Shown piece by piece: positions 15,801 through 57,545 of a stretch of 64,000 nt of DNA (position 1 is the stretch's first letter; every line of letters starts with the position of its first letter). The position numbers and the translations under genes are program-made. This stretch comes from Yuukianura sp. NJ FZ-2021 (taxonomy: Eukaryota), in assembly GCA_046563655.1 (NCBI GenBank), contig CM102283.1, positions 4,836,001 through 4,900,000 of the forward strand. The letters run 5' to 3'. The notes below the pieces were generated by a model. That model was not told where the DNA came from, ran no database searches, and saw nothing but the letters and a program-made list of their open reading frames with translations.

Positions 15801-17613
15801 AGATAAACAAGTTAAACAAAATACTTAGAAATACATACAACCATATTATTTTTTGGCTGATAATTGTCATACGGAGATTTCGGTGTAGACGTTTTCCACA
15901 GAAGTTCGGACAGCTTCTGTGACAGGAAATCTCGGTCCTCGAGTTGTGTAAGGAGGAAGGACGATTTGTGTTTCATGGTGAAGAGGAGACTTGTGGCGTC
16001 TGATGTACTCTTTTCGATGACCTGGACTTCACGAAGTGGGATAACTAGGTCAACCAGTCTTGGAACCTGGGTGATAATCCAATGTTAGCAAGATTATTTT
16101 CATGACCAAGTTAAGTATTATAACAGTTTCGATAATTGATTTTTTGAAAGTTACTTTGCTTTTGAAGCAGACGTAATTGTTTGACAGGTAGAGTGTCCCC
16201 TTGGGCTCTCTTTTATTGTAAGGTGTCCAGAGAGCACACTGAGTCCGTCCATCCAGTTTTTCTTCAGCGGGTAATCTGAAAATGTTTCTGTAAGCCTCGG
16301 ACTCTGCACGCGCATCAATGTCCCGTTTCAGCACTGACGCTTTCTTTGGAACGTTTTTGCTGGATTTACATAACAAGTCTGGATCCTCACGAAAACTCCT
16401 CTCATCCATAAGCCTACATAATCAGAGAACTGTGTTGCATCGAATCTCTCAAGTAAATTCCAGGTTTTGGTGATTTCTTACTGTCTCATTGCGAGATTGG
16501 CAAGTTGTGTCATTAAGTTAAACGTTTCAGACTTTTTGACAAACATGGAAAAGTGAAACTGAAAATAGAAACAAATTGTTGATTAGATACAACAATTCTA
16601 AGTTCTCAGCATCTTTTATATTTTACTTCACCTGTCCTTCTCGTGTGGAAACTTGTATGGAATCTGGAAACACGAATGAGTTGATCGTGTCAAGTCCGGT
16701 GACGTCTGTCCATCGCAGTTTTATCTTGGTCTCCTTGCCAATCAGGTAGGAATAAAATGAAAGATGAGAAACACTCAGGTACAGCCACCCCTGCCTCGGA
16801 AGACTCCCTTTCCAGTAACTACAACGATAGCCAATACAATTTCGAATGTTGTGGGCTGGCCAACGTATTGCATAAACGTGAGCTGCTTACCTGCAGGAAT
16901 AAAAATTAACCAATTTCTCTTGTTCAGGAAAATTAAAAATCTTGCGAAATCGGTGAGAGCAGGCGCGAAACGATTCACTTTCGGCATCTACACAAATTAG
17001 AAAACAATTTTTTCGTTATAATTTGGTGCTAAATGGAAAATAGTCTGAATTTAATTGAATTAACCTTCAGCTAAATCAGATTTTGGCTTCAAATCTGCAA
17101 CAAGGGATTCAATTTTGCATTTGACAAATTCAGTAACTTGTTCTTCATTGTCGAAGTTGTAGAGAGTGTTCATTAAATTCTTTTCTATCCAGGCCCAGTC
17201 TTGTAAAATCTCTCTTTGTGTCAGAGAACACGCAATAACTAAAGTAAGAAAAGAGAGATTTTCAAGTGAAAAATAGTCTTGTTTTCATTCTTATTAGAAG
17301 GCGTACGGTAATAAACTTCGGAGTTTGGCGTTTGATGCAGGATTCGGTATGGGGGCGGTTTCGTATCAAGAACGGTGTCCAAAGTCCGGACCAGGATGGA
17401 ACCGATGTTCTTTTTCCGATTGCCATGACCTCTTCTCTGTTGTAACACGAAATAAGTATTGGCTTGTTCGGGAATCCTGTGTCATGAATACGAATATGAA
17501 TATCCATATAATTTTAAGGCAGAATAAAATAATTGTAGCTTATCATTTTAAAGAAATGTTTCACTTTACCAAAAAGTACCGGGCATAAGAATCTCTTCTG
17601 GCTTTACCCACAT
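12855..17613 (-). CDS. TBC1D9: TBC1D8/9-family Rab GAP (GRAM, GRAM, TBC, EF-hand), multi-exon
   Basis: Starts MWVKPEEIL. Contains [49 protein letters not shown], and C-terminal [23 protein letters not shown]. Canonical splice sites link the ORF pieces. Confidence 0.93.
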
Positions 17614-19031: not shown

Positions 19032-21105
<2,074 letters not shown>

Positions 21106-26652: not shown

Positions 26653-29600
26653 ATGGAAGTGGATGAGCACGAAGACGAAGTTTGTCCAAGTAAGTCAATT
26701 TTCTTCAGTCAATCCTCAATCCTCCTTGGTTCCAAATGAATGTAAAATTCGCCACTCGCGTGCGCTATAATAACGGCGGGGACAGTTTGTCTCGAAGGTC
26801 GTTGCCGTTGGATTCAATTAGGAAGGATCATTTCCTCCTTTGAATCGGTACTTTTTGCAGTTAAGTTACCATATTTGTACTACAGTTGATGACTTCCGAG
26901 TTGAAGTCTCTGAAGGAAATGTAAAAGAATAAGTTGAGGACATAAAATTTTGAATTTATTTAAATAAAAGGCTGTACTCATTCTCAATACAGGACTAGAA
27001 AGTAATCTTGATGAGGACTCGGATGAAAATGACGAGGCAAGCAGCGGGGAAGCAGAAGAAGAAATGAATGGACACACGGACGTTGGCAACGAAAACTTTC
27101 ATGACACAGCAATGGATAGTCCTATTGCTGAAGAAGAAGAAGAAGAAGAAGATGAGGACCAACCAATGGATAACGATTTATCTGATTCAGGAGACAGTGA
27201 AAAGAGTTTTCGCATGGACTACAATTGTCAACTTTGTGGACGTGATTTCATAGACATCAACAATCTTTTTTCACACTTGGAAACACACAAATCAGGTACT
27301 ATTAGCACTTTGATCATGTGAGCTCTTGAAAATTAACAGTGAAACAATATTCATTATGTCCTTATAGTTTGTGATTGTTTGAGAGTACTCATTCGTTTCA
27401 TCGTTCGTGTCTGTTTTTTAGGAGATTATGCCAAGAGTGATGAAAATTCCTCTTCCGCACAAACTTGTTTCGGGGATCCGAAAGAAGCTAGAAGTGGGAA
27501 GAAATGGCCGCGTCGATTTCTCACACTACAATCTCCAGTATTCGAGCCTCAATTTCAAGATACAAGTATTACTTTAAATGGCACCGAAGTGGAGTCTGAA
27601 GAGGACACTTCAAATGACATTGAAGTTGACTCCAGCAGCAGCGACGCTGACATTAATGTAGCACCGCCGGAATCGAGTCACCTCGTTGTCAATGGTGCAT
27701 CAGATCAAACCAACAGTGCTCGATCCCAACAACCTAGGCGTCAGCGGTACACATGTCCCCAGTGCCTCAAACAATTTCGACGTTCTGACCACTTCCGCCA
27801 GCATCTCATCAACCATCAAGATGGGGGTAATGCCTTTTCCTGCGAAATTTGTGGCCAACACTTCAGTGTCGTAATCGCTCTCAGGAGACATATGATGACC
27901 CATGAAGGTGAGCTTCCAATTAATTAGGTAAATTGTACATAACTAATTTCTTAGTAGAATATTTATGCTAATTTATTTATCTAGAGTTCATGCCGTTCAA
28001 ATGTTCCGGATGTCCACGCCGCTTTCAAGACGCTCTCCTACTCAAGCAACACGAAGACTCTCACTTCAAACTCCCCGAGGATAGGGTGTCCTTTACGAGG
28101 AAAAAGTGTAGAGTTTGTCCCCAAATATGTAAGCGAATGAATCCGAGCAATGCCTTTTTTACATCTTTATCTGCTAAATTCCTGTGTTTGTATTTAACTT
28201 GTGTATGCTTTATACTTTCAGTTGGAAATGAGGCCAGTCGTGTGGAACATGAAAGACGAGTTCATGCCGCTCCCCAGACCAAGTTCATTCTTCGCTGTCG
28301 TTACATTGCTTGCCGTGAGGTGTGTCCTACGCTCAAACTCCTCATCCAGCATTACAAAGACAAACATGGAGCCGAGAGACTGTTGGAAGCTGCTAAAGCT
28401 CTTCAGAATCAATCCCAACCGCAAGTTCCTGTTCCTTCGGAGCCCGACGCTCCTGTTCCAGTGAATGTGAATGGATCTAATCATGTTGTAGATGAGGACG
28501 AAGAAGCGCCTGAGGAAGCAGAACCCGTTGTAGAGCCAGCCACGTCGTCCCTGGAGGATGGTTCTGTCGAGTGCCGAATGTGCTTCCAATTTTTGTCTTC
28601 GATTGCGGAGAGAAACTCACATGAGAGTGCAGTGCATGCCATCAACACTCCCGGAACGGTATTGCAGTGCAAGTACTCCGATTGTAGGAAGATCCTCGGT
28701 GCAAAGAACTGGCTGGCCAGACACATCCGAGAACATCGTGAGAGGATCAACCAAGGGCTGGAAATGGAATCTGAGGAAGATTTGCAGGCACTTTCAAAAG
28801 CACTTAACGGAGAAACTGTGCAGGAAAACGAAACAGAACATACTCTTTGTGATTCTGAACAAATGGAGGTTTCAGATGAGGATGAAGATTTATGGGAGTG
28901 CCGACTCTGTGGCCAGGTATGAATAAATTCTAATTAAATCCGGAGACGCGTTGTAATTGAGATGGGTTCAGCAAATACCAATCTAGAATTGCTATAGTAT
29001 TTGTTCTTTGTTTTGTATTCAGGGATTTGTGGAAGAGCAAGATCGAGCAGCACATGAAGACAGATTGCATGACACCGGGAACCCTACATCTGAATTCAGT
29101 TGCAGATTCTGCTCCAAAGAAGTTGTAAAATTTAGTGCTTTGCTCATTCACATGGACAGAACTCACGGGAAGGGAAAGGAGAAAATTGCTTCTCTGAAAC
29201 CACCCAAACTTACCAAGGAAAACAACAGCGGAACATTCGTATTTCCGTGTAGACACTGTGACCTTACGTTCGCTGAGCAGCATACCAGAGTTGTTCATGG
29301 TAAGCAATAAGCATAACGTGATTTCACTATTAATTAATTTGCTAATGCTATGTATTAAGCTCATGTCTTTCCCATATTTTGTACTACTGTCATGCGCTGC
29401 ATTGTACGTCCACTTTTACGTTTCTAGAGTACGATGTTCACGAGACAAGGGATGCAATTGACAGCCATTTCCCATGCAAAGTATGCCAGAAAGTGATGAC
29501 CCTGCGGAGCCTAAGAAACCACCTTCGCAAAATCCACGGTTTGAATTCCTATTTTGAGGCTGATCCTAAGAAAATCGCTGATGACAAGAAGCAAGAACTT

Positions 29601-30196: not shown

Positions 30197-33100
30197 CTAA
30201 GAAGCTTCAGCCCCACCCAACTTGGGATTCCGCCGTCTCCACCGCTTCATGCACCCGCCGTCATTCTTTGTACCCACCCCACTCTCGGTACCTGACAAAG
30301 TGCAAATAACTTTTTCGATTAAGTTAAACTAATTAAGTCGTCATCAATTAATTAATTAATTAACTAATTGTACCGCTTCTTGAGCCACAGGTCTCTGAAG
30401 ATTTTGAGCGGGGAGATGGAGCTCCGGGCGTAAATTGTTGCGATCCGACTCAGCAGAAATCTGTTCTCACCCATCAAACCCTAGAGTAAAAGTAAGTAAA
30501 CTTATTATTATTATTTAATACAATGTATTATATTATTACATTGATTGTTTTTCAATTTTAGAAGACGAATTCAAACTTACGGCTTGTTGCCTTCTGGATG
30601 GAGTGCTGCAGGACGCATGATCTTGAGAAGATCCATCACTTGTTCCTGCCTGTGGAGAACCTGCGCTCACTCCCTTGCTCTCTTCATACATTTCGTCCTC
30701 GTAGTCTTCTTCCAGCAGAGGCGGAAGTGGACCAAGTCTGGACACACCTTTTACAACATTATGAAACATTGAATTTTTATGAAATTAATTTTACTTAACT
30801 TTTTAATTGTAGATAAGTTAACTGGACTTGCTGTAGCTGTTGTCTGGTACTTGAGTGGGAAATCGGAAGTTAAAGTCCGACTCAAAGTCCTCTTCGAACA
30901 GATCTTCTTCTTCCAAAGCGCAGTCTCCTTCCAAGTCCTCATCTTCTTCATCATCAAATGCAAATCTCGCTCGTGACCTCGGCATCGCTCGGCAAAAGTC
31001 GGGGAGACCCGACAGTGTATCTTCGTTCTCCAGTTTCTCCAAGCTCTCGTATGTCCCATAACGAGTCATCGTTGCATGGCTGGCGCTCGAGAAGTCATCT
31101 TCGTCCTCAAAGTACTCCTCTGCTTCGTCTTCAAACGTTTGCGGGTGGCTGTCACTTCCACCTTCCTCTCCGCCCGAAGTAGGAGATTCTTTTGTGATGA
31201 GGATCTGGGGGTGGGGCGGATGCTGGGTGGGGCCACAGCTCAATTTTAATGACGAAGAAGTGCTGCGCAGAGATTCTTCCTTGCAGAGTGACGAGGACGA
31301 TGATGACCAAGATGGATCGGTAGTTCCGTTTTCATTGCTGGCGGGTGAGGCGGATGCTGCGTCGGAGGAGGTGGAGTCGTCTGACGATTCGACGCGTTCC
31401 AACTGCGCCACTTTTTCTTGCTCCAGCAGAGCATACTCTATTCCGACGCTCTTGCGTTTCCGAGTGTCTGCGTCACCTTGACGAGGGGAGTTTTTTGGGG
31501 GCGTCGTGACATGGAGGGGCTCGTTGGTGAAGATTTTGACGATAAGGGCCTCTGTGGCGGTTGTTTTTGGCGGCTGCGCAGACGTAGTTTGGCATTGACT
31601 AAAAAAAGCACGACGACGTTGATTGTTGAGAAGACGGATTTGGATGGGCGTGAGGATTTGTGGTGCGTCGTCCGTTTCCGTCGACTTGTCTGCTTTTCCT
31701 ACCCCCACAGATCTCGCCATTTGCCCTGTCAAATACAACAAAAACACAAAGCATGTCACATAGGCAGAAAAATACTAGTAGAGAACAGAACGCGCAAAAT
31801 ATTACAATTTGAAAAAAAATTGGTAGCGGTCAGTTTTTTTAAATTTGCGTTTATTTGCGTAAGTTACTACTATAAGTTTGTTTTGTTAAATCTTTTATTT
31901 GAAATATAAATCTCGCGCTTACGCGTTTCATTTTTTTTTACGAAAGTGTCAGTTTCTTTATTCTTGTTATGTAGGTATTCCTTAGAAAGTTGTGAAAATA
32001 TATTGGTGGTTTAAAGAAAATTGAAGATTGGACTGGTAGCTTTCTCCGCGTCGATTAGCTTGGACTGAGATACTGCTGCTCCCTCACATCCCATAAATAA
32101 TTCTGCTCAAACCCATGAATCTTTCTCTCCCTTCTCAACTAACTTTCCCCTCGCCTAACCTAGTAAAATCACTTTTTCCTTGAAACGGATTTTTTTCACC
32201 ACTCAAACAATTACATCTTGATGTAATGAAATCTTGAATTAAATCCGAAAAAATGGACAATTTTGTTCTTGAATTTAAATGCAACATTGATTCCGAAATT
32301 GGGCGTTGCCTATCCCGTATTGGTTGAAAACTCAGGAATTGTTATTGCGGAAACTTCTATGTCGAGATGTCACGCAACCCTTGTCAATGTGGAATCTATT
32401 GTTTATGCACTACGTCATCACAAATTCAAGTAATTTTCGTTACCTCTACTTTTAATTAGCACATCATTGTCAGATCTGTCAAAAATTATAGTTAAAAACC
32501 ATCGAAATACTCATTTGACAAGTAAATGACAAAATAAATAACAATTTTGTAAACAAGAAGCAAAAGAAAAAAAAAGAAAAAAAGAAAAATCCGAAAATGT
32601 GTAATACACTCTTCTCATTATTGTGAGAATGTAAACTAAATGGAAATTACCGATACTAAATATTATGTTAACAGGGCCGATAATGATGTGCTACAAAGTT
32701 CTATCCGGTGGATCCCGAAATTGGCGGGTATTTTCTGATGACGTAATGTTTGGAAAATGTGTTAGGGTGGAAAGGGGCGGGGGATGAAAGAGAAAGTACC
32801 TTGAGTGTCCGGTTGTTTGGTCTCAAGGACTCTGGGTAAAGCGGAAGTCGTAGTTACCTCGCTCCTTCGACCCACTCCCGCTTGCCCACCAATCACATTC
32901 GCAGCAGGCCGACTGCTCCAGCGCATGCGCACAGGCTCATCACTGATCCCGGAGTCATTCGACGACGATTCCTCTGGACTCCTTTCCCGCTCTTCCACAA
33001 CCAAATTCAGCGGAGACAGTTGCAGACTTTCTCTCCCCTTCAGGCCCATCCTCCCTCCAGACACACACTTGCTCAGTTGCTTCTGCTTCTGCGCAGGAAG

Positions 33101-36100
33101 TGGACTTGGGTGTGGAGAAATGTAGTAATAGGGAGTCACTAGTTCAGCTTCGTCTCCAGTGCGCAGGTCAACTTTGTGTCCCAGACTCTTGATGAAAGAG
33201 CGTCTGTCTCTCGGTGAGATTCCAAATAGTTCGGGGTAGTCACCTCTGACCTTGTAGTCTACCAGAATGCGTCTGCGCCGTCCCTCACTCCCTCCCCCGA
33301 TCATGGGGGAGTCCTTGTGGTCCACCTTCTTCTTATTCCGAACCCCCTCTGGCCCCTTCTCCCCTTCCACAACCTTCTCTGGACTCTTGTCTTTTGGCAC
33401 TACTGTCACAACCTCGTCTATTTCTTCAGTACTATGCGCAGGACTTGCTTCACAAGACTGCGCATGCTCATCAATTGGCCTCTCTTCTTCCTGGGACGGT
33501 ATCCTTGATTTGTCTGATGCATCCGGTGCCTCTTCAGGAACTTCACATTTCACTTCTTCCTTTTCGTCTTCCACAGGCACAGTCTCTGGAAACTTTTCAC
33601 AGAATTCGGAAATGGAGAAATTCGAGGACGATGACTTTGAGATTCGGGTGTTCAGTGTGATGCTATTCAACACAAAATTTAATATTCAAAGTTTTTAAAA
33701 AAAAATTTGTTAAGTTTTTGAAAAAACTTTGGACTCACATTTGTCTCTGGAGCAGCAGTTTCCAAATGTTTTTGAGTTCCCTATTGGGCGTTCTAAGGAT
33801 AAGCTGATTTGGCTTTTTCGTTTTCTTTAGCAGTCGATCGAGACGGGAGTGGGGTGGAGTCACTTCCGGACCAAACAGCAACCGGAATTCATTTTCTGAA
33901 ACATGGCGTTAATCCGTTATCAGTTCATAAGAAAAGTGGTTTAGAAGATGATTTATGATTGATTTGTAATCAATTGATGATACGCGAGAACAATGAAGGT
34001 GAGAAAAGCATTGTTTTGATGATTACCGTGTTTCTTAGGTACATTAAAGTGGAGGGTCGTGACGTCTTGGAGCTTGAGCGGCGCGTCTCTGACGAAGAAG
34101 ACGCGGTCACGCGTCGTATGATGCGAAGTCAGAACGAGGATGTCGGTAAACAGAAACGCCCAAACGGCAGAGAACGATCCGTCACTCTCCTTCCGAAACA
34201 GTCGACTTCCAAATAACCATTTACGGCCCTTTTCACAAACTTTGAACTCCTAAAATCCAATTCAAAATGTTACTTTAAAAAATTTAGAAAAAATATAAGG
34301 TCAAAGGTCAACTGACTTGAAACCGTGTAGAGACAATTCGTTTTTCGAGATGTCTGACGGATAGGAGCGGAGACTTTTTCATGCTCAGGTGAGAAATGGG
34401 TTCCATGAAATCCGTTTCACAAACGATGTCACCGTAACAATCCTGGAATCAAAATTTTGAAATGAAAATCCAAAAACCTTTTTGAATTTGGCACAATTTT
34501 GAGGTTTTTTGAAAGTGACCTTCAGTTCCTGGGCGATTGGACTCCATTCGGGGGAGGAATGCAAAATCTCTTCAGATATCTCACACAGGTTTCTCAGATG
34601 CTGTGAAAAACAGGTTAGATTTGGGAGATTCAAGTGTCAATTGCTTAACTGACTTCAGTTTGAGTTGTTAATTAAAAACTGACCTCCAGAGGAGCAAATA
34701 GGAGCGAGGTCATGTCCAAATGACCTTTGGGAACAGGAGTCTCCAGTACAAATTTGGCGAAAAGTTGAAAGGTCATCTTGTCCGCCAAGATTGTGGCAGA
34801 ACTTCCAAGATGCTTTGCGTAGGAACTGTATCCATCCAAGAGTTCAGGCATCTGCAAATGCAATACTCTCAAGGTTTAACGCTGACTTAACCTTTGACCT
34901 CTCATTTTACTGAATACTTACATCTGAGCAGCTATTATTTATACTTACATGGTCGGAATGCGTGCGCAGCAGTACTTCCCCCAGAGGTCCCCCTCCGTGG
35001 GACACACACTCCAGAATTCTCTTGGTAATCGTGATGATCTACCAATTCAAAAATGATTTATTTCATTTCAAATGCTTTGCCTAAAAGTGATTTCAAAATT
35101 TTAAAGTTTACCTTGATGACATGACCAAATATTCCGTTTAGTTCAACGTTTGACAACAAGCAGTTTGCCTGAGCTGGTATCAAGTACCTACATCCACGCA
35201 ATGTTAATTTTGGTTGGAAATTGTTTTTCCAAAAAAAGTTTTTTCTTGGAGGATAAATTATGATCACCTGTCGAGAGCAGCTACAACTTTTCTGAAAAAT
35301 TTGAGTTCAGTGATCACGAACTCCCTCACTACTTGTTCTTCTTTCTCCAAATACTAAAAAATGGAAAGTATTTTACATAACATGGTTAGTTTCGTACTTT
35401 TTCGCCGCTTTGTCTTCCTACGTCGGCATTCCCACAATTAATCATCGCCATTTCAGCCGAGTAAAGGTTTAAGTCTCACAGTGCCCCACGTACCTCAAGA
35501 TTGAATCGGATTTTCCAGGCCGTGCCGCCGGTCCCACCGACCTTCTTGATCTGGGGAGTGGAGAATGGTTGTGGTGGAGCCGATGGTTTCAAAATGGAAA
35601 CTGGCGGCAGACTTTTCATTCCTGGGTGGCACAACACTCCATTTGGCATCTGCGCATTCACCTCCTTCCCTTCCACCTTCTCGGTGCATTCCCTCGTAAC
35701 TTCCAGGTTGAGCGATGCTCCAGAGGCACTGAAACAATTTGTCAAAATGAACAAGTCTGACAGGAAGTCACTAACTTTTTGGTCAAAATAGAATTTGGTG
35801 CGCATGCGCTCTACTAAAAATAGTTGTTCAATTTATCGAGTTGTTTCTGGATTGGTTTGTACAAAAGGAAAGAAGTCACTCCACCCAACCAACTGAATAT
35901 CACGGGAGAAGCTTTCACTTTACTCTACAGAATGCAATTTTGAATCATGCGCTCAACCTTGGGCAAACATGTAGTGCATAACATGATCAATCACTTGTGA
36001 ACACGCTCCTGGTATTAATTATACAAATTGTTATTATAATGTGAAAAGTATACTTAACTTTGTAAAACGTATTCAAATGGCAGTGTTTTTGAAGAGTGAT

Positions 36101-43892: not shown

Positions 43893-46800
43893 TTAAGTTA
43901 CTTCGAGTGCCTTCATTTTGCGCATGCTCTTCCCAGGTCCCTCAGCAGGCAGCGTCAACGCCTCCAGACGCAATGGTCTTCGAAAGGAACTCAACTGGGG
44001 CGACGTGAGAAAGCTATGTCCACTGTTTAGCCCTGCAAGAACTCTCATGTATTACATGCACTATCGTTGGCAATGGAGATAAAACAGACTCACCAAACGT
44101 CTGAACTGGCGACGACGCAGCCGCACCCCACGAATGGGCAGACTCGGGTGACTGAGATGTCACATGAGATTTGGAGATGACGTTGAAGTGATTGTTCCAG
44201 TTGGCCATGATCCCATTCGGCGTCTTTGGTTTTCCATCGGCAACTACTGCTGCGTTAGTGAGGGAGAGATGCAGTTAGGTTGAGTAAATTATGTTAAGGT
44301 TAAGTGGGCCTAACCAAGTCTAAACCTAACTTATTAGGTTATGGTTTTTAGGAGTTAGGTTTATACTTGTCCATAATTGTGTGCCGGTACCATTCCATTT
44401 GTTGAGGATGACGCGAGATGCATCTTCTTGTGCCTTCATCAAAAGTTCTGTGGCTCTTTTGGGCTTGAAGTAGTTTTCAGTAAACACTTCTGGATGGTTT
44501 GTTTCAAACTTCTGCAAAACAGTTTGTTACAAATTAGTTCAATTTATTATATTATAACTAATGTATTCAATTAAAATAAATTGTTATGAACAATTATGAT
44601 GAATACAAATACCTTGGAAAGAACACTTCTCTGGTTGTCGCCGTCTTCCTCCATCGCTTCGTCGTCTTGAAGGCGTCCTGGGGCAGTGCGAGACGACGCA
44701 CGCGTAGTACGTGTTTGGGCACCGCTTCCTGCCGGCGGCAGTTTGGTTTTGGAGCAGATGAGGTCAGGGATTTTCCACTTGAGCGTCTCCTCACTCCAGA
44801 CAGCCTCACTCTTCACTTTGTCCAAATTTCTAACAAACGCCATATTTTCAAAATTTTGAAAAATGATTTTTTTAAACTGATTTTGAAAAGCGAGAGTTTA
44901 CGAGTAGTTGGAGTCTCTTCGGATTGTTGGTTGGATTTTCTCTAGAATTGCTTGTAGCAGCTTGAGCTGTTGGTCTTGCTTCCGTATCGTTTCTAAGTAG
45001 TCGGCTCGATCATTCTGGAACTCGGCGTACAAGTCATGTACTTCACAGTTAAGAGCACGGATCTGTCAATTACAATTATTAATAGCAATTAATATTATGA
45101 AAAAGTAAAATATTTAAATCTGTCCTACTTTCTGTTTGAACTTTTTGACCGCCTCCGTTTTGACACGTAATTCTTCCTGAACAGAGTCGTAGGCTTTGAG
45201 CAGAATCTGATTTTCTTCGTCGTCGCTGCGACAAGAATCTGCAGCCACGCGTGAGCGTTTTTCCGCTGCACGACGCTTTTTCTGCCGTTTCTCCTTCAGT
45301 TCAGTATCATGCGCACGTTCGCCACCTACCATATTCTCTTCGATCTCATGCAACCTACAAGGATTGAAAAAAATATATCAAATAAAAATAAATGATATAA
45401 CAATAATAAATTAAATAAAATTATTTCTATGTGACCTTGCGAGCGTTTCCTGCTGGAGGGGGCTGAGGGGGTTATTGAGTCCGTCTTGCTTTGCTTCCAT
45501 GGCAACTCTCTCCATGTCCTTTTCATAGCGCCGACGCAGTTCTTCCACATCGGCCTGAAGACGCTGACAACTCTCCTGCTCAGCAGCATAGTTGACACGC
45601 AGACGCACAACTTCCGCCTCGTACTCTGCACGGATCTTGGCCTTTTCTTCCTCCATATCCAAGATGGAGTGGCGTCGAGAGATCGGGGCGTGGCCAGGGT
45701 CCGGTGCCAATGCTTTCTGCGACTCGAGCAGAGTGCGCAGTTGCTGGATTTCTGCCTGGTACTCAAGGAGCAGAGCGTCCTTTGGATCCTGGTTGATCGT
45801 CGGTTTGTTCTTGATGTTCTTGGCTCGATTGGCGTAACGCAGCGTACTCAACGTTTCGTCGTAGTTGTTATCTGAAGGACTGACGCAGGCAACCATAAGC
45901 GTTTTTGTATTTCCCCCCAGCGAGTCCTAAAACCACAACGCTTGACTTCAAATAAACATCAAGCGAAGTCTGCGTATGATTCGCTGTGTCAAACCTGTAG
46001 GAGTCGTGTTAATTTTGAGTCCCTGTATGGAATGTGCTTGGATTTTCCGTCTACGAGTGCTGAGATGACGTTACCCAAGGCGGAGAGCGATAGGTTGATC
46101 TTCGTGGCTTCCTTGAGACGGTCTCCAGTGGCACCTACAAGGTCAGGTCAAATATAAGATAAACGTCAAATTCAGGGGTCATGTGATATGCATACCAGTT
46201 TTGGCTTGTCGCTCTGACCCAGCGAGGTCCACCAGATTGAGCTTGCCCTTACGAATATGTTCGTCACCCGTCATCATCTCCACGTTAATTGTGAAAATTG
46301 AGTGGGAGCGAGAACTATCGGCGTTCATCAATGTAGCACCCACCGACCGATTCTTCCACCCACGTTCAACCAATTCCTCACACTCGGCAACATTGTGTAC
46401 AGCATGCTGTGACAAATCTAAAAAAAATTGAATCAAAATCAATTCATTTTCATCAATACGAAAAAGTTCCATTTTTGGTTCAGATTGTCAATTCGCGTTC
46501 TATGCTTTAAAAATACAAGGAGTAAAAGTTTTCTCCCAAACTTACTTTTATTACTTTCTCTTTTTTGTTAAAGTTTGAGCAATTTCTGCAGGAATGTTTT
46601 GATATAAAGGAATAGCATTGATGGGGAAGGGGGAGCATTGTTTGTTTTGTGGTGGCTTGCGTGAGTGTTATTTATGCTTCAGTGACAAGGTTTGCTTAGA
46701 GGGAAGAATGTTGCAAGAATGGAGGGATACGGGAGTGAGCGATGGATATGAAATATTTAGTTTCTTCGATTGACAGTTTTTGAAGGTGAGTGAAGTGGTT

Positions 46801-48366
46801 TTGAAGGTCAAGTCAATCATAAGCTTCTTAAAAGCGTCACGAGGAGAGGCGACGCAACAGCCTGGACAATGGACAAAACTGACTCATCATTCTTTTCAAA
46901 TTTCATTTCCAGAACTTTCCAAAAATTTTACGAAAATTGCTTCGAAAGTGACCTTCAAACCGCACGCTTTGCATGAAATCTTATATTAACTGAACTTTTC
47001 CAAGCGAAGTTCGCCTAAATCTAAAAACTAATTCTAACTTTAACCTAATTAAACTTAAATTGTTTACCTGCGACATAGACTCCGTTGTCTGGATGTTCCT
47101 TGAGATCTAGTTTTCGTTTGATGTCTGTTCCCAAAAGATCTCTGATTTCCTCATTGTAGATTTCGAGGTAGGAGGCATGGACGAGGAACTTGATGTCGTC
47201 TGAGCTGTCAATGCCCTCGAATAGTTGTTCAAATGCCCTTGGAATGATTCCCTTCTGCTGTACCGGTGTGGGAATGCCCTGCATAGTAAACGACTTCCCG
47301 CAGCCTGTTTGGCCATAACAGAAGATGGTCGCATTGTAACCTTCCAGCACGCCCTAACGGCATGTCAAAATCCAAACAAAACTGTTTTACTAAGTCATTA
47401 GGAATTCAACTTAAGTAACTGCGCCGGAAGTCCTTATGAGAAAAGCGTTTGCTCCGTGTTTTTTACAGCAAAAAAAAAAGAGAAAAACGTTGGTAGTAAA
47501 CCGTTTCTTTTCGGTTTCCATTGCAGCGGAGAAATACACGCAAAACGTGTTTTAAAAAGCTGTAAACCTCAAGACTATTTGGATTGTTAAATCGAAAGAC
47601 CTTGAGTTACCTCTACTAAGGGGTAAGTGATTTCGTTGTAGAGTGCTTCTGTAGTGGAATCTGTGAAGTAGACTCCGTCGAAACTGAACGTTTTGGGCGG
47701 GGCTGTTGGATCCTGTGGGTTCTGCAATGCACAGGAGCAATGACTCCCATCCATCGACACAATGCACTGAAATATGAATGAAAAGCATTAGTGCGACTTC
47801 CTGGAACTTAATGGCTAAAGTTAGCCACGTAATTACAACCTAAAAGCTCAACGAATTTAGTTTTGGATGAGTGTGGCTGGAGGGTGAATGACTCTACAGA
47901 CGCTGACCTTTGGCCCACTACCTTCCTTCTGTTTTCCAATTAACACTTGACTCATTTCTGGCTTTTTCCAAATAACACCTCTTATCCCACTCATCAAAAT
48001 TCGATTTCATATTTTTTTTCATTTTCTCCATAATTCCCTACAATGGAGCATCAAATTACAGTTGAATAGGTCATTCACAGGAGGAAATCGAAACCAAAAG
48101 TCAACGAATCCTTCTTCTCTTGTCTTTCTTTTCACAACTTTTCACAATTTCAATGCAGAAATTCAAATACTTTCACCACTTTCCCCTAAAAAAACTTTCA
48201 TTTGCATATGTTACACTTTTGTCAATGTATGAACAAAAAAAGATTCGACGACAGTTCCAATAACGTTCAACATTTCCCCCCACGATAGGCTTACCTTGGA
48301 GTTGAGAGCCGTTTCGCGTCCATTCATAGGGCGACATCGCACAACCACTTTCACGGATTCACTCAT
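43893..48366 (-). CDS. KIF17: Homodimeric kinesin-2 (KIF17/OSM-3-like), multi-exon
   Basis: [49 protein letters not shown], a coiled-coil stalk, and a tail RRPLRLE similar to the KIF17 C-terminus. Confidence 0.9.
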
Positions 48367-49388
48367 TTTGTATTTTGTAGACAGTTTTTGACTCCTCGTA
48401 ACCTTTAATAGCACTTTACTTCTTCAGACTGAATTATAGTTGGATCCAATGCCAGAGTCATCCTCTGAATCACAAATGCTGGGCCTACTTCAACTCTGTT
48501 TAACTTTGAGCGGAAATGTTTAAAAAATGAAGACGCGTCGTTGTCGTCTTAGGGTGTCTTGCGACGTGTGACTGGATAAGTGGGATGAAGGTTCTTACGT
48601 GAAATAGGCCAATGGCAGATCAATATCAGCAAACAAACACAGGACACTTGACGTGAGACAAATTGCCAATTCCACTTAAGACCCTCATCTACTCACGGCT
48701 TGGAGTGGTGCAATATTCCACACGACATCACGAACTACCAGCGTCCTCCACACCACAAACGCTACTGCTAACTTTCACCTTCTTTCTCCCCAGCTCCACT
48801 CTAAAGTCTACACGAATCCAACCAAACTCACCCTGTTTCAGAAACATGGGCACAGACTTGAATTGTCTTTTACTTTACAGTTGTCCGAACTTCGTCAAAC
48901 TTCAAACTTAATAAAAATGTATGCCCGCAAAATGTACTGTTTGAAAGTACTGTAAAAAAACATCGAACAAAAATCACCGGAGTGTCTGATCCGATGACTC
49001 TACAAAATTGCAATCGGTACTCCTGGCTTTCTTATTCCGGATAAAGAAATCCGAGGCACAGACGACGGTTGTGAGTGTGTGACCGTCAAAACTTTCAAAA
49101 GTTACCGAGGCATGTTTTTCTAGAGACATCTTTCCATGCTTGTAGTGGGAACGCTGCATTACAGCCATAAAATTGGTTTTATTATTTGACAGACTTGTTT
49201 GATTTTTATTTTTGAAATTCAAAAGAAAGAACCGTAAATTTTTATTTATAGCATAAAATATTTAACAGGAAAAACTTAACATGCTTTGGTTCCGAATCGA
49301 ATTTGAGAGTCCACTTAATTTTTTAAATAATTGTTTAAATCTTTTACTTTCTATACGTATTACCTAATTTTTTTTTCAGTTTTTCACC

Positions 49389-50100
49389 TTAACCAGCATA
49401 GCAGATTAGCTTGTGTTTCAAAATTTTCCAGTCGTTTTGTTCGCACGTCTTGTCACAGTAGCTTGCTCGTTTGCATCTTGCGCAACGTTTGGTAGCGTTG
49501 TCTGCACCACAGAAGCGGCATCTTGTTTTGACTCCTCCAGGACTATGCATGACCAGCGCAGAAGCATCGTCCACTCGAATGCCACATTTTCCGTCATAAG
49601 CCAACCGCATGTATGCATTTAGGATACTGAATTTTGCTCTAAATCCGAATTTTTCTAGTACAAGCTTTGGGTCCTAGTCTGGAAAGTTGTAAATAAACGC
49701 TCGCATCCCATGTCCATATTGTCATCTTCCAGACAGAGGAAAGTCGACGAAAGAACTGCGTGACTTAAAGCATCTTCAATACTAGTTACTTGAAGAAGTA
49801 GACTTTGTCTTCTAAGGGGTCCATTCGGCTGAAGGTGATCTGGTTGAAACCACTCCGTCGTAAAGGCGCATTGGGTGCACTGTATGGCGGCATGGTGTAC
49901 TCAACGACCACTTTATCTCTCCAGTGTGCCAAATCGCAGCGATGAATTATGATTCGACACACGTAATTAATATCCGTCAATTTCTCATAGGATCGTTTAC
50001 TGGGTTGTTAGTATTTTTGGATTGGATTGAGTTTATTGACTAATTGGGACCATGGACTTGACGTCCATGGAGCCGTAAATAATAACGTATTACAATTTTC
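49389..50100 (-). pseudogene. Disrupted 3' part of the HEPN-TPR-Sel1 gene, ending in a MYND zinc finger
   Basis: CRFCG...KRCARCKRASYCDKTCEQNDWKILKHKLIC is a MYND finger. Upstream there is an in-frame TAG at 49674-49676 and two apparent frameshifts (~49720, ~49795). Confidence 0.75.
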
Positions 50101-50144
50101 TAAGTCTAAAATCCCAATGGAGAGGAGAGAATGTTGAATCTAAT

Positions 50145-53126
50145 TTACTTAGTCATTTCATTACACGTACATCTTACATTAATTCCCTTGACGGGTTGTA
50201 GTATTATTGACATTGAAGAAGAAACGGGAGAAGAGGCGTCGTGTTCCTTTTCTTGATTATTGCCGCTGCTAGTTTTCAACTTGCCAATGATGACCAGGTT
50301 CACTTGTTCAAGAATCTCCTTCTGTTTGGAATCGTACGGAAGAAAGCATGGCAGTTGATTATGTTCAGCTCTCAAACCCATTTCGTAAAATTCTTCAACT
50401 TTGGCAAACCAGGAAAAGTCCAGCTTTATTTTTGAAGCATGGCCCATTTTACTTTCTTTCACGATCCCCTTCGTATAGTAGTTCTCCTTGAAATGCTGGT
50501 TTGCAATTGCATAGAATGATTCAGGAAGCCTCTTATGATCTTGCGGTGCCAGGTTAATAAATGTTTCATACGCAGAAATAACATCATCTGTACTTGAAGT
50601 CTCACCACATCTCATGTGTACTGCTTTGATGTAGGACAGCTCAACATCATTTGGAAATTGCTTCAATGATTTAACGGATTCACCTAGCCCTTCATCAAAT
50701 TTTTTCAGAAAACAAAGCAAACTTGAATAGAGATGGTGAAATGCAATCTCCTCAGGGTATTTTAGTTTTGAGCACTTAACAAAATGAGTGCATCGTACCA
50801 AATTGTCGAAGTTCATGTAAGCGTAACAGATTCTGGCGTTGCGGTCCAGATCCGAAGTTTCTGTTGGAGGAATTGACTTCAGAACGGTGTCTATAATTTC
50901 GCTTAAATGTTCCCTAAGCCTCAGTGGTAACCGCACCACCGTCTCTTCACGCCGGAAACTCTCGGCAAACTCATAAATCATTTGCTGTTGGAAATTTTGT
51001 GACGACCGTGAGCTCTGATCTACGAGTATGCGCGACCCTCTCCCAAAATGTTTCATTGTTCTTAAAATCGTTCTCGCCGTTTCAGAACGATTTGCAAAGC
51101 TTTCTATTTCGCGGTAATCAAACTTATTTCCTGTGGACGACTGCATTGGAGTTGAGCTGTCTTTTCGACAACGTGAGTAGATATTGTTGCTGGTATCGCT
51201 TAAACGGACGATGTCAGGAGCAATAGCAGCCATCATGTTAGTTGCTCTTTCCTTTAAGTTAAGGCCACGGGAATCGACTCCAGTGATGAACTCATGATTT
51301 GCCACTTCTTTTTCAAGTGCTAAACTATGCATCTCTAGTACTTTTAATTTTGCTTCAAAATCAGCAGCATTAAGTTGGGCGGGAAGGTATTCGTGTTTCA
51401 CTGCGAGGTTAAAGTACTCCCGAGCCTCTTCCGGATCCCCATGATTCAAAAAGCAATTTGCCAAGGTGTGCATTGCACGGACATTGCCTTGTGATGCTGC
51501 TAACTTCAAATAGTGTACTCCCTTTTCAGGATCCAATAAATCTCCCCGCCCAAATAGGTGCATTATCCCTAAATTATTGGACGAGGTATGACAACCAAGA
51601 TCGGATGCTTTCTTATACCAGATAGCAGCCTGATGCCAGTCTTCTTTTACTCCAGTTCCTTCTTGATAGGCTAGCCCAATAGCATGTTGGGCTTCCACAA
51701 CGCCAACGTTTGGAATGTCACCAATCCAAACAGGCTGTGAAGCAGCGTCATGCATCAGGTTGAGTGACATTTCAAAATTTTGTTTTACTCCGTTTCCATG
51801 CATATACATGACTGCTAAGTTATAAATTCCTTCGGCATTACCCAATGCAGCAGCTTTACGGAATAATAACGCTGCCCGATTATAGTCTCCACACTCCAGA
51901 CAGATCAAATGTGCCTGACGGACTTCACTTGTACCCGGTATTAATTTTTCCGTAAGTTTTGATTTGATTTCGGAGAATTGTTTGGCGGCAGCATCGTCTT
52001 TCAAGCCTTTCATAATTCTTATTTTTTGGAGAAACTCTTGTTCAGTAGGTAGCATTTTAAATGGATCAAGGTGCTCCTGCCTTTCATACTCACCAAACTT
52101 CACACGACAAATGTCTCTAGCTGTTATTAGATCTGGTCGAGCAGGACAGAAGCCAAGGGCTGAGTCGTAATATTCCAAGGCTTCGCTAAACTTTTCCAAA
52201 GCCATATACGCGTTTGCGGCGCGAAAGTAACCTCGGTACCAAGTTCTGTTTAAATTCACTGCTTCTTTTGCGTCTTGGAGGGCTAGGTATACGTACTCTA
52301 CATCAATCCGAGTCGTATCTACTTTTGACATTCCAAGATGAGCGGTCGACCGGTTGGAGTACAGAATAGCCAGCTCTGTTGCGGGTAATCCTGGCAGCGA
52401 TATGGCCTTTGTGTACATTTTTACAGCGTCAATGTGCTTACCTTCCCTGTAAGCCGCATTTCCATCCTCTTTTAATTTCTCCGCTTTAGCGATGCTCGCC
52501 ATTGCGTCTGGCTGTGACACATCTTCCACCAATTCGTTGACGTCAGCAATACAGCCTCCAAAAAATTCTAAAACTGGTACTGCTTTCTCCCACCAAGTTT
52601 GGAACAAGTCATCTTCAATGTGCATGGAAGGATGATGGTATAAGAAATTTCTGACTTGCTTTATGACCTCAAACATTTGGCGCTCCTCCTTGAGTCTTGA
52701 ATCGTTCGCCCACCTTTTAACACGTATGCGAAGTAATACATCAATTAACAGGGGTGTATCCCAGCGATTTACATCTCCTGAGTCAAGTGCCTCTTTCTGG
52801 ATGACCATTGAGTTCTTATAAAGTTTTTTTCCGCGTCCTTTGATGAATAGGGTTGCGGTTTGAGTGGTCCAATCTTGGCCAATCTCATCTCTCCATCGTT
52901 GCAAGAATAATGCTCGAAGATACTCATTCACTATGTGCAGCAAATTGCGGATCTTTGTGAAGTTTGACTGCTCGTTCTAACGTACACGAAGTAAGTACGG
53001 GTTAATCATTTTTATTTTTTTTAGTTGTGTTTTTATTTGACAATTTGGCAAGGTTTAAGAATTGATAAATTTACCATTTCTTTATGCTTCCACGTTTGAA
53101 AAATATGTAATTGAGAAGCTTACCAT
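50145..53126 (-). CDS. DZIP3-type HEPN domain + TPR + Sel1 repeats + TPR-like protein; ~2.8-kb exon after an ATG-only coding exon (ATG at 53126 or 53077)
   Basis: N-terminal WDTPLLIDVLL...IKQVRNFLYHH (R-x4-H). TPR: LKEDGNAAYREG...LYSNRS. Sel1: GNAEGIYNLAVMYMHGNGVKQN, AQHAIGLAYQEGTGVKED. The acceptor near 52978 extends the ORF in phase 0. Confidence 0.85.
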
Positions 53127-53859
53127 CGTTCCTTATTTCTGGTATGGTATACTCAAACTTCGATCAGGTTACTGTCGCTTTTCGTGTCCTTTCTTTCTGT
53201 CCGTGGCCGAAGACAATAATTCCAACAGAAAAACTAATTCGGAATATATATCGATGTTATGCTCGCAAATGCAATACGAAAAACACTCGAAACTCTATTT
53301 TTCTCCAATCGAAGTAATTTAGTTTGCTAAAAAGATAAAAAAAAGATTAGATAAAAGGTTGTGAACATGGGTTCTAATAGGATTCAATGTAATACGGTCG
53401 AAATCATTTGGTCGCAAGTAATAAGGTCGGAAATAAGGCTTAAATGTGAAAAGATCACAGGTAAATGGGTTAAAATGTAAAAAAAAATCGGAATATAAAA
53501 ATGCCGGAAAGTGTAGTAAAAGTAAATCTTTAGCCGAAATCTGAAGTAAAATGGTAGCAACAGTGTAGTAGCAGAAACATTTCAATGTATAGAAACAACA
53601 AAAATGCGATTCAGGAAAAAAGATTCAGGAATGTCAAAATTTGATAATTTTTGAAAAGCCTAACCATTATTGTTATTAAATTTAATAATCTAACCTGCGC
53701 GGAGACACAGCACATAATTCTTACTATAACTACTGATTATACAATGGAAATTCACATTGTTAATCTAATCACAACCTTAATTAACCCAATGTTAGGAAGG
53801 ACGGGTAACCCCCAAAAAGAGTTTCAGATTCGGAATCTACGCCAACGAATATATATGTA

Positions 53860-54989
53860 TCTACTTATATAAAATCGAGACCCTGTTTATCTGTGTGTGT
53901 GTGTGTTCCACTACTCCTCCAAAACTACTGAACCGATTTTGACAAATGAGGTGTCCTTTTCATCGTGAGGTCACCCCGAAGAGAATAGGCTATGTGCCAT
54001 CTTGACCTTTGACCTTTGACCTTTGACCCAGAGCGATAACCTCACAAAATCATACCAAACACAGGCAAGTGACATATCATTCGAAAGCAGAGGCCAAATG
54101 CAGTCGATTGATGCATGACACATTGACCTGTGACCTTTGACCCTTGACCCAGAACGGTGACCTCATATAGAATTAAGCGGAACATAGGCATGTTGTATAT
54201 CGTTCGAAAGAGGAGGTTCAAAGGAGTTGATTGCCGTAGTTCACGATGACCTGTGACCCTTGAACCTTGACCCATCTACTTATATAAAATCGAGACCCTG
54301 TTTAATTGTGTGTCTGTTCTTCTACTCCTCAAAAATTGCTAAACCGATTTGGACAAATGAGTTGTGATTTTTTTCGTGAGGTCACCCCGAAGACCCTAGG
54401 CTATGTCGCCCGTGACCTTTGACCCTTGACTCAGCGTCATCACCTCATAAAATCATACCAAACACAGGCAAGTGACATATCATTCGAAAGCAGAAGTCAA
54501 ATGCAGTCGATTGATGTATCGCATTATGACCTGTGACCTTTGACCTCTGACCTTTCGCGATGACCTCACATAAACTCAAACGAAAAATAGGCATGCCATT
54601 ATAATATCATTCGAATGAGGAATATCATTCGAATGGAGAGGTCCAATGCAGTCGATTCGTGTATGACACGATGACCTGTGGCCTTTCACCATCGGCATAT
54701 CGCGGTGACCTGACATAAACTCAAATAGGCGTGTGAGGCGCGGCATGGAGGGATGTGAACTTTGGGCTTTGACTTCCCCTGTAGCGGGTTCCCAAAGTGG
54801 TAGCGGGATCCCCAAATTGGTAGCAAGTTCCCAAAGTGGTAGGGGTGCCCAAAGTCATAGTGGGTTCCCAAAATTGGTAGCGGGTGCCCAAAGTGGTAGT
54901 GTGTTCCGTAAATTGATGTTTTCCTATGTGTGTTCTCATACACTACCACAAGAGCTAGCCCCGCTTTCAGAAGCGGGTATTCTACCTTG
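53860..54989 (+). mobile_element. Non-autonomous Helitron with a duplicated 5' module and an internal minisatellite
   Basis: A|TC start (tctacttatataaaatcgagaccc) followed by (gt)n. The 5' module repeats at 54275. A 3' hairpin cccgctt-tcag-aagcggg precedes cttg|t. No TSD. Confidence 0.8.
54780..54900. repeat. 19-bp minisatellite, about 6 copies, inside the Helitron
   Basis: Tandem ggtagcggg(t/a)(t/g)cccaaa(g/t)t-like units. Confidence 0.9.
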
Positions 54990-56367: not shown

Positions 56368-57545
56368 TGGAGGGATATCGGTTGCAAAATTATTTTACAT
56401 TTTCGCGCTTTTAAAAACGTTCCGCCACTTCAAAATGACGCTATCCCCACATTAAAGTAATGCGCCAAACTTTTTTTTAATTGCACCAGCATTTATTGCA
56501 GAAAAGTTAACTGAAAAAAAATTTAAACAGGAAAAGGTCTAAACGAACAGTAAAATAAACGTGCGCTTAGAAAATCGTACGCTTAATACCTATTGGCAAC
56601 AAAAAACTAAGTGTACAGTAAAGCCAGTGTACGCTTAGGCTAAATGTTACTCTTAGAATATAGGGCAGTGTTAGCTTTCCCCCGAGAATTCGTTCATTAC
56701 TCCAAATGTTAGGGGTTATCCCGAAATTCCACGCGGGAAACTTCACTTTTAATTGGCGGAAATTTTTGGGTGCACGCCATTGCATCAATTGAATTGTGTC
56801 AACGACAATTGTATCAATTGAATTGTATCAATTTGAATTGCATCAACGGCTAATTGTATCAACGAGCCAATTGTATCAACTGGAGAATTGTGTCAACTGG
56901 CGAATTGTATCAACTATGAAATTGTATCAACTGGGCAATTGTATCAACTGGGCAATTGTATCAACTGGGAAATTGTGTCAACGGGTAAATTATGCTTCAA
57001 ATTTTTATTTAGTAAAAACAGACTTCATTAATTTTTTTTCTAGTCAACTAACTTAATACTCAAACTTTGTTCTATAAAAGAAAACTGTTTAATTTGATTT
57101 TTTTTCGGTTAGGTTTCTAATATTAAGGTAAAGTTTTTTAGGTTACAATTTAGTTTTGATTTAGTTTCAGTGCTTTCAAGTGGTTGAGGTATTACACTGT
57201 GCTACTGCAGCGTAAAATTTTTGTTTTATTTTATAGAAAAATGTTTGAGTTTGACTAGAAAAAAAATTAATGAAGTCTGTTTTACTAAATAAAAATTTGA
57301 AGCATAATTTACCCGTTGACACAATTTCCCAGTTGATACAATTGCCAAGTTGATACAATTTCATAGTTGATACAATTCACCAGTTGATACAATTGGCTCA
57401 TTGATACAATTAGCCGTTGATGCAATTCAAATTGATACAATTCAATTGATGCAATTGTCGTTGACACAATTCAATTGATGCAATGGCATGGAACCAAATT
57501 TTTAAAGCGCGAAAATGTAACAATTATGCAACCGAAATCCCTCCA
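56368..57545. mobile_element. Older MITE whose right TIR is split by the 56768-57495 element
   Basis: tggagggatatcggttgcaaaattattttacattttcgcgcttttaaaaacgttccgcca matches the reverse complement of 57496-57545 joined to 56748-56767. A third related end lies at ~57630-57695. Confidence 0.75.
56768..57495. mobile_element. 728-bp foldback element with ~300-bp modular TIRs and 8-bp TSD
   Basis: The arms are built of aattgtatcaac subrepeats and are near mirror images. aaattttt flanks both sides (56760-56767, 57496-57503). Termini start with GG. Confidence 0.92.

Follow-up and report, generated by a model that had tools for sequence, protein, structure and literature searches.

A probably spliced gene of a HEPN-TPR-Sel1 family with a predicted DZIP3-type HEPN domain and a broken 3′ end in Yuukianura sp. 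NJ FZ-2021

The stretch of DNA analysed here, referred to as the window, comprises 64,000 nucleotides of Yuukianura sp. NJ FZ-2021 (GenBank assembly GCA_046563655.1, contig CM102283.1, positions 4,836,001 to 4,900,000), and its minus strand carries a gene predicted to encode a HEPN domain followed by TPR and Sel1 repeats. A stop-to-stop scan reveals 943 open codons at 52976..50148, the longest frame of the window (the next has 318 residues); counted from the first in-frame ATG, its product has 887 residues. The 56 open codons that precede this ATG hold positions conserved in the family, and no ATG is in frame from the upstream stop (52979-52977) to residue 57. Because these codons are conserved and yet lack an in-frame ATG, we infer a separate ATG exon and a first intron: an ATG at 53126-53124 abuts the donor GTAAGC, the acceptor ..GTTAG/AAC lies at 52977/52976, and the predicted product, M+NEQSNFTKIRNLL.., agrees in length with the N-termini of homologues. 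An earlier sequence-only reading had placed the gene at 50145..53126, and the start ATG, donor, 943-codon frame and stop are indeed all seen there on the minus strand; its outer coordinate, 53126, therefore corresponds to the putative start codon. The single exon proposed in that reading holds for the region from the HEPN domain to the second TPR solenoid, whereas the start codon and the MYND finger lie outside the long exon. Judged by its sequence, the locus is a real animal gene whose start codon is reachable through splicing of at least one intron. If expressed, the window copy would yield a product of roughly 944-1010 residues without the MYND adaptor end. The features of the locus are as follows.

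53124..53126, minus strand: end of exon 1, the putative start codon (ATG followed by the donor GTAAGC; splicing predicted)
52977..53123, minus strand: predicted intron 1, 147 nt, GT..AG, from splice-site sequence
50148..52976, minus strand: long exon of 943 codons (P0001), with its stop codon at 50145-50147
52527..52976, minus strand: predicted HEPN domain, DZIP3/hRUL138 type, residues 1-150 (homology and AlphaFold2 model)
52746..52763, minus strand: WDTPLL, second conserved motif of the HEPN domain, residues 72-77 (W72, D73)
52635..52652, minus strand: RNFLYH, the R-N-x3-H motif, residues 109-114 (R109, N110, H114)
52107..52499, minus strand: first TPR module, three TPRs of Hsp70/Hsp90 co-chaperone type, residues about 160-290 (phmmer against PDB)
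51342..51884, minus strand: Sel1 repeats, residues about 365-545 (PF08238)
50265..51137, minus strand: second TPR-like helical solenoid, residues about 614-904 (AlphaFold2 and Foldseek)
49984..50177, minus strand: intron-like gap, donor AAT/GTAAGA (50178/50177), acceptor 50000/49999 or 49984/49983
49712..49999, minus strand: relic of the beta-rich domain in two frames (49999-49798, then 49807-49712; tblastn with P0003, P0004, P0005 and P0087)
49674..49676, minus strand: in-frame TAG within the relic (tblastn)
49395..49703, minus strand: 3′ coding part of the relic in a third frame, ending in zf-MYND, with its stop at 49392-49394

The N-terminus is assigned to the DZIP3-type HEPN domains, as the sequence-only reading had proposed, and the assignment is supported by homologues that pass PF18738 (HEPN_DZIP3 in Pfam) together with the conserved RN-x3-H motif. 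A phmmer search with the first 165 residues against 1.84 billion representatives detected 115 relatives at E ≤ 1e-3, 23 of them at E ≤ 1e-10. Among the best 40 of the 115, 30 match PF18738 at E ≤ 1e-3 and 20 do so at 27 bits or more (best 62.7), one matches HEPN_Swt1 only, and nine match neither family. PF18738 is also matched by 5 of the 10 members of family alignment A1, though the window protein itself stays below the Pfam cut-off; its HEPN_Swt1 score is 16.8 bits against a cut-off of 27.5. The HEPN superfamily is marked by an R-x4-6-H motif in which R is mostly followed by a polar N, D or H. This motif, here R-x4-H, is intact in the window copy (RNFLYH at 52652-52635), and its three positions are nearly invariant in alignment A2, with R109 kept in 105, N110 in 106 and H114 in 104 of 112 aligned HEPN domains. 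The WDxxLL motif upstream of it, also pointed out in the sequence-only reading, is present as WDTPLL, with W72 kept in 107/112 and D73 in 111/112 domains. At the 25 positions conserved in at least 60% of the domains, the window copy agrees with the consensus at 23 and has I for L at the remaining two. A bare R-x4-H is not above chance, occurring at least once in 84% of shuffles of the window protein, so the motif draws its weight from the alignment, where the RN-x3-H of the family is near-invariant, and not from its own occurrence.

To this may be added structural comparison. The AlphaFold2 model of the N-domain, built from 49 sequences, is all-helical, with a predicted local distance difference test (pLDDT) value of 91.3 and a predicted template modelling score of 0.84. 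The VIA exhaustive fold search placed Csm6 (4rgp) first (Z 8.7, 117 aligned residues, root-mean-square deviation 3.5) and AbiF (8vz6) second (Z 8.3), and HEPN proteins account for at least 14 of the 50 rows listed. Ten of these are recognized by title or known identity (four Csm6, AbiF, the sacsin HEPN, HepS, an AMPylated HEPN toxin and two RnlA), and four more are HEPN proteins according to a table in PMC3710099 (3l0i and 6yx5, both DrrA, 1jog and 1ylm). Prediction of a two-copy dimer of the N-domain scored 0.30 and 0.27 against a mark of 0.32, which carries no weight either way.

The HEPN domain is followed by a long helical scaffold, in which both Pfam TPR families pass their thresholds (TPR_1, PF00515, 41.3 bits against 27.8; TPR_2, PF07719, 43.9 against 27; E 1e-10 to 1e-11). 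In a phmmer search against PDB, the first TPR module matches Hop/STIP1 (2.4e-19), RPAP3 (7e-13) and PP5 (1.6e-11), as well as SGT, Tom70 and Sec72. TPR domains that bind Hsp70 or Hsp90 grip an EEVD-type C-terminus through a clamp of three TPRs with five residues, K, N, N, K and R. The putative carboxylate clamp of the first TPR module consists of K169, N173, N208, R248 and R252; across 58 family members, the numbers retaining these residues are 37, 40, 47, 48 (K or R) and 46, respectively. The first TPR module may be where an acidic C-terminal tail, for instance from Hsp70 or Hsp90, docks. Sel1 repeats (PF08238) are present at 83.3 bits (E 1e-23, cut-off 30.7), with three stretches passing and a fourth recognized by eye; the presence of the repeats was thus rightly noted from sequence, but their number is 3-4 and not about five. 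The further TPR-like helices noted there are borne out by the C-terminal 400 residues: the AlphaFold2 model of residues 545-943 is a helical solenoid of 16 helices (pLDDT 81.5), whose best Foldseek rows are all TPR proteins (consensus TPR, MamA, OGT, APC3 and TTC5; E 1e-3 to 1e-2). This second solenoid carries the family motifs DHRKxPE and QLPCFLPY (alignments A1 and A3). The Pfam scan found no nucleoside triphosphatase (NTPase) or other NLR-type switch domain in the window protein or the 10 A1 members; one short relative, P0069, has a sub-threshold match to nSTAND_NTPase5.

In homologues, the second TPR solenoid is followed by a beta-rich domain some 130 residues long and then by a MYND finger. 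A full-length search returned nine proteins that cover 46-94% of the query at 29-35% identity and bear eukaryotic names or none; all further matches cover at most 26% of the query, in the Sel1/TPR part only. The named members come from bdelloid rotifers (Rotaria, Didymodactylos and Adineta), Panagrolaimus superbus, Bradysia coprophila, B. odoriphaga, Orchesella dallaii (three proteins), Folsomia candida and Mortierella sp.; the Mortierella records, which lie on contigs of about 5 kb, may be contamination. The family is already in databases under automatic names, e.g., “MYND-type domain-containing protein”.

We read the locus as a spliced gene of a multi-domain HEPN-TPR-Sel1 family in which a HEPN ribonuclease (RNase) would be gated by the partners of its scaffold, and we assign this statement as a whole a probability of roughly 0.6. 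Its parts differ in strength. The domain architecture (HEPN, three-TPR module, Sel1 repeats, second TPR solenoid and, ancestrally, the beta-rich domain and MYND) is highly probable, while the chance that the HEPN head is catalytic as an endoribonuclease falls a little short of even. HEPN enzymes are metal-independent endoribonucleases with a composite site formed by two HEPN domains; the HEPN head of this family would likewise cut RNA without metal, pairing with a second HEPN to form the site. By tethering the head to protein partners, the repeat scaffolds would govern the place or the time of RNA cleavage, and the first TPR module might grip an acidic C-terminal peptide such as the tail of Hsp70 or Hsp90. 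A bolder version, in which the family would be a chaperone-docked RNase that couples RNA decay to stress, as a switch comparable to Ire1 or RNase L, is quite improbable. Under it, a latent HEPN nuclease would be kept on Hsp70/Hsp90 tails by the Hop/PP5-like TPR module, the end composed of Sel1, TPR, beta domain and MYND would hold client or adaptor proteins, and proteotoxic or viral stress would redistribute the chaperones so that two HEPN heads pair and cut RNA.

Several results weigh against a scaffold-gated RNase. The window protein reaches 13.2 bits (E 0.077) and 15.5 bits (E 0.016) against HEPN_DZIP3 (PF18738), for which the cut-off is 27. The VIA scores of Z 8-9 are within the chance range for helical bundles (below about 13), for which reason the HEPN fold is counted as consistent rather than proven; Foldseek with the N-domain model returned nothing at E ≤ 1e-3 (top row AbiF, E 0.66), and the sequence-profile search of PDB with the N-domain alignment retrieved nothing beyond a designed coiled coil (E 0.0011) and rows at chance level. 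The clamp residues are 64-83% conserved and no better, 14 of 26 substitutions in the long frame are non-synonymous, which makes the constraint moderate, and the damage to the 3′ part means that the locus as a whole could be decaying. In the literature searched, DZIP3, HEPN and “RNase activity” come together in just two papers (PMC3710099 and PMC9646362), both of which make computational predictions.

In a first alternative, which we consider rather unlikely, the HEPN domain would bind RNA or protein without catalysis, and the family would serve as a chaperone-linked adaptor or scaffold rather than a nuclease, with the TPR clamp on Hsp70/90 and MYND on PxLxP-type partners. In its favour are the Hop/PP5/RPAP3-type TPR module and the literature searched, which yielded no RNase data for DZIP3-type HEPN domains; human DZIP3 (hRUL138) is an RNA-binding ubiquitin ligase and is not known to be an RNase. 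The adaptor reading fits poorly with the retention of R-N-x3-H in 93-95% of the 112 domains, the pattern of catalytic HEPN families. A table in Anantharaman et al. (2013; PMC3710099) indicates that inactive HEPN families usually lose the R-N-x3-H pattern and that catalytic ones keep it; it gives the motif of the DZIP3/hRUL138 family as “mostly conserved”, and its authors predict this family to be an RNase.

The second alternative, of similar standing, concerns the state of the window copy, which may be a very young, partly decayed copy: the gene could be a dead or dying paralogue (pseudogene) whose long frame is still open since the decay is recent. The evidence lies in the 3′ end. In tblastn searches with four homologues, the missing 3′ part is spread over three frames (50001-49798, 49807-49712 and 49703-49395), the last of which is 46-53% identical to homologues. 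The zf-MYND finger itself (PF01753, 49401-49520) is intact at 38.1 bits (E 1.6e-9, cut-off 22.7). The MYND finger of the sequence-only reading does therefore lie downstream and belongs to the family, but it is outside the long exon, from which the intron-like gap, two frame changes and a TAG separate it. The frame changes and the TAG, three lesions in all, fall within about 130 bp: about 10 nt are missing relative to homologues at the first junction, near 49798, 2 extra nt stand at the second, 49716, and the TAG occupies 49676-49674. The beta-domain and MYND reading frame is lost in the window copy, which is either a shortened variant or on its way to becoming a pseudogene.

Contigs assembled from public DNA runs, representing at most two samples from two studies, one of which samples may be the assembly's own source, were compared with this region. 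The two letters at 49716 are absent in one contig each of runs X2, X4 and X5. X2 record 9 and X4 record 16, which come from one sample, span both junctions over 49565-49827 with 10 substitutions and no gaps; because these gapless contigs span the junctions, the frame changes also exist outside the window assembly and are not an artefact of one assembly, which favours decay. At 49676 the base differs in every covering contig of all four runs, turning TAG into AAG. In one contig of X2 and one of X5, position 50001 connects directly to 50193; the intron-like stretch 50002-50192 is thus missing from other copies, a further point in favour of a pseudogene. The donor of the intron-like gap, AAT/GTAAGA, stands 30 nt ahead of the stop codon at 50145-50147. 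A short intron was considered as the cause of both frame changes and rejected: from the donor AA/GTAACT (49790/49789), the sole fitting acceptor among the in-phase AGs upstream of 49703, 49727-49726, enters a TGA, and the stretch to be skipped is homologous to the family. Within the gap, an AATAAA at 50032-50037 (minus strand), 108 nt past the stop of the long frame, could end the transcript before the relic exons, although its chance occurrence in A+T-rich DNA is not small.

The long frame itself tells against a dead gene. An open frame of 943 codons at about 40% G+C would be very unlikely without selection, and the HEPN consensus residues are kept (23/25). Analysis of the best-supported 40 of 454 differences between window and contigs yielded 26 substitutions in the long frame, 12 of them synonymous and 16 at third codon positions (binomial p 0.003). 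None of the 12 best-supported insertions and deletions falls in the long frame; they lie at 49716, 50050 and 53015-53198, five in predicted intron 1 and five more just upstream. This distribution argues for moderate constraint on the long frame, at least until recently. The shorter homologues P0006 (855 residues) and P0066 (800 residues) also end soon after the second TPR solenoid, although they may be partial gene models.

The sequence-only reading had interpreted the gene as a sensor-effector of innate immunity, in which the TPR/Sel1 solenoid would sense a pathogen ligand and release the HEPN RNase, as in RNase L or HEPN-NACHT proteins. A role of the window gene or its family in defence, drawn from this analogy, is possible but unlikely. 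Many diverged copies appear to exist in the organism: 87 contig pieces of run X2 align to the gene, 51 of them below 95% alike, and the many contigs at 85-95% likeness suggest several paralogues or divergent haplotypes; tblastn within the window finds a single copy. In the passages concerned, HEPN_DZIP3 domains head NACHT/NLR-like proteins and are themselves greatly expanded in oysters and cnidarians (PMC3710099, PMC9646362), and HEPN domains with Sel1 or TPR partners recur in bacterial defence loci according to the table of PMC3710099. Against these parallels stand the Pfam scan, with no NTPase, death-fold or other signalling switch, and PADLOC, which assigns no family to the protein or its N-domain. 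Moreover, the first TPR module resembles housekeeping co-chaperone TPRs and not receptor repeats, and the tree groups of the 31 sequences sampled largely follow taxa, unlike immune-type turnover.

The maximum-likelihood tree of these 31 members, rooted at the midpoint only and with two long-branched rows, groups the window protein with Bradysia and Folsomia (ultrafast bootstrap 99; Shimodaira-Hasegawa-like approximate likelihood ratio test, SH-aLRT, 98), with separate rotifer (100/99), Orchesella (100/100) and Mortierella-containing (96/95) groups. Gain of the gene by horizontal transfer from bacteria, or as a retrocopy, is very improbable: the one long exon amid intron-rich neighbours, the bacterial Sel1 proteins among the matches and the patchy hosts (springtails, Bradysia, bdelloid rotifers, Panagrolaimus and Mortierella) would suit it, but the bacterial matches are limited to the Sel1 part (10-26% of the query), the nine proteins with 46-94% coverage are eukaryotic-named or unnamed and the nearest relatives are animal proteins, the window protein falls in the Bradysia/Folsomia clade with the other groups apart, and the start codon is reached solely via splicing, so that this suggestion of the sequence-only reading is not supported.

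Outside the window copy, the beta-rich domain of the homologues matches no Pfam family at E ≤ 1 in three homologues and has no PDB sequence relative when searched with a profile of 14 pieces; in Atlas, the TTC5_OB cluster is a weak look-alike (score 0.80, rank 7). The domain (e.g., residues 895-1035 of P0087) has the invariant positions K33, D45, D73, P110-Y111, R113, I123-R124 and D126 in the numbering of alignment A4. In P0008, from Didymodactylos carnosus, a DDE_Tnp_4 (Harbinger-type) transposase domain (E 3.2e-26) stands in place of the MYND end; fused gene models or an inserted transposon could explain this.

The MYND relic is followed, after some 1 kb, by a KIF17/OSM-3-type kinesin gene in the same orientation (45000-48430, minus strand). 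It has at least six small exons, which bears out the contrast with intron-rich neighbours drawn from sequence. A kinesin exon is 48-61% identical to named proteins among its 120 best matches, led by springtails at 54-61%. The gene had also been placed at the edge of a block rich in transposable elements: repeats do occur nearby, at 53896-54595 and 56760-57503, but none of the 14 large window frames scanned with Pfam contains a transposon domain. The first repeat, just upstream of exon 1, is a unit of about 405 nt that occurs twice in tandem, the copies being 84% alike, with GGTCAAAGGTCA-type short repeats. The second is a foldback-like element whose inverted arms, up to 198 nt long and 89% complementary, are composed of 17-nt tandem units (AATTGTATCAACNNNNN, seven copies at 56835-57004), and it may be a miniature inverted-repeat transposable element or a foldback transposon. 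Elsewhere, the window carries a RabGAP-TBC domain (15091-15972, minus strand), a SecY/Sec61-alpha piece (20515-21102, plus strand) and C2H2 zinc fingers (27343-27924, plus strand); nine more frames of at least 150 residues (e.g., 27972-28919, 30821-31774 and 32765-33685) match no Pfam family at E ≤ 1e-3.

In invertebrate genomes, HEPN domains of the DZIP3 type rank with the most expanded of the putative effector modules, and the family described here represents a compact form without an NTPase, whose signature is conserved in springtails, fly, rotifers, nematode and Mortierella records. Its co-chaperone-like TPR module suggests a concrete candidate partner. The window copy, with its decayed tail, is of limited value on its own, and the intact Bradysia or Folsomia proteins are better subjects.

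Among known systems, TTC5 also joins a TPR solenoid to a small beta domain, and its structure 4abn appears in the Foldseek results for the second TPR solenoid; this likeness is a lead only, as neither Pfam nor PDB sequences match the beta domain, which the window copy has in broken form. The structures closest to the N-domain model are Csm6 and AbiF, yet at 6-11% identity and with Z values in the grey zone of helical bundles, and the window protein lacks a CARF domain or a non-coding RNA partner, unlike both. RNase L and Ire1 share with the proposed mechanism the logic of a repeat or sensor part joined to a HEPN RNase that works on dimerization; their HEPN (KEN) domain is C-terminal, behind a (pseudo)kinase that drives dimerization, whereas the window protein has no kinase, and no sequence relation between them was found. 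The clamp domains of Hop/STIP1, PP5, RPAP3, SGT and Tom70 are matched by the first TPR module at E 2.4e-19 to 1e-8, with K, N, N, R and R at the putative clamp positions, while the rest of the architecture is unrelated to the Hop/PP5 group.

The closest parallels lie among the HEPN_DZIP3 proteins themselves. Those of the pearl oyster, as presented in sections of the genome paper (PMC9646362), have the same HEPN type, with Rx4H the commonest spacing and N after R, and some are without NACHT; Rx4-6H is found in 194/202 of them, and that paper proposes RNA degradation of viruses and transposons. The oyster genes differ in being clustered in non-syntenic immune regions, often with NACHT, whereas the window gene is present in one copy in the window, beside a kinesin gene, and combines co-chaperone-like TPRs with Sel1. 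The passages concerned of PMC3710099 and PMC9646362 mention neither Sel1 nor MYND, and in the literature searched no paper treats HEPN, Sel1 and MYND together, nor was the family itself found. The DZIP3/hRUL138 family (PF18738), for which the PMC3710099 table records lineage-specific expansions in Nematostella, oyster and Capsaspora, resembles the window protein in its N-terminal all-helical domain, its conserved RN-x3-H followed by TPRs and its standing as an animal lineage family, although the window protein stays below the Pfam threshold. Among the known HEPN-TPR proteins of DZIP3 type, the family thus represents a variant architecture that is as yet undescribed.

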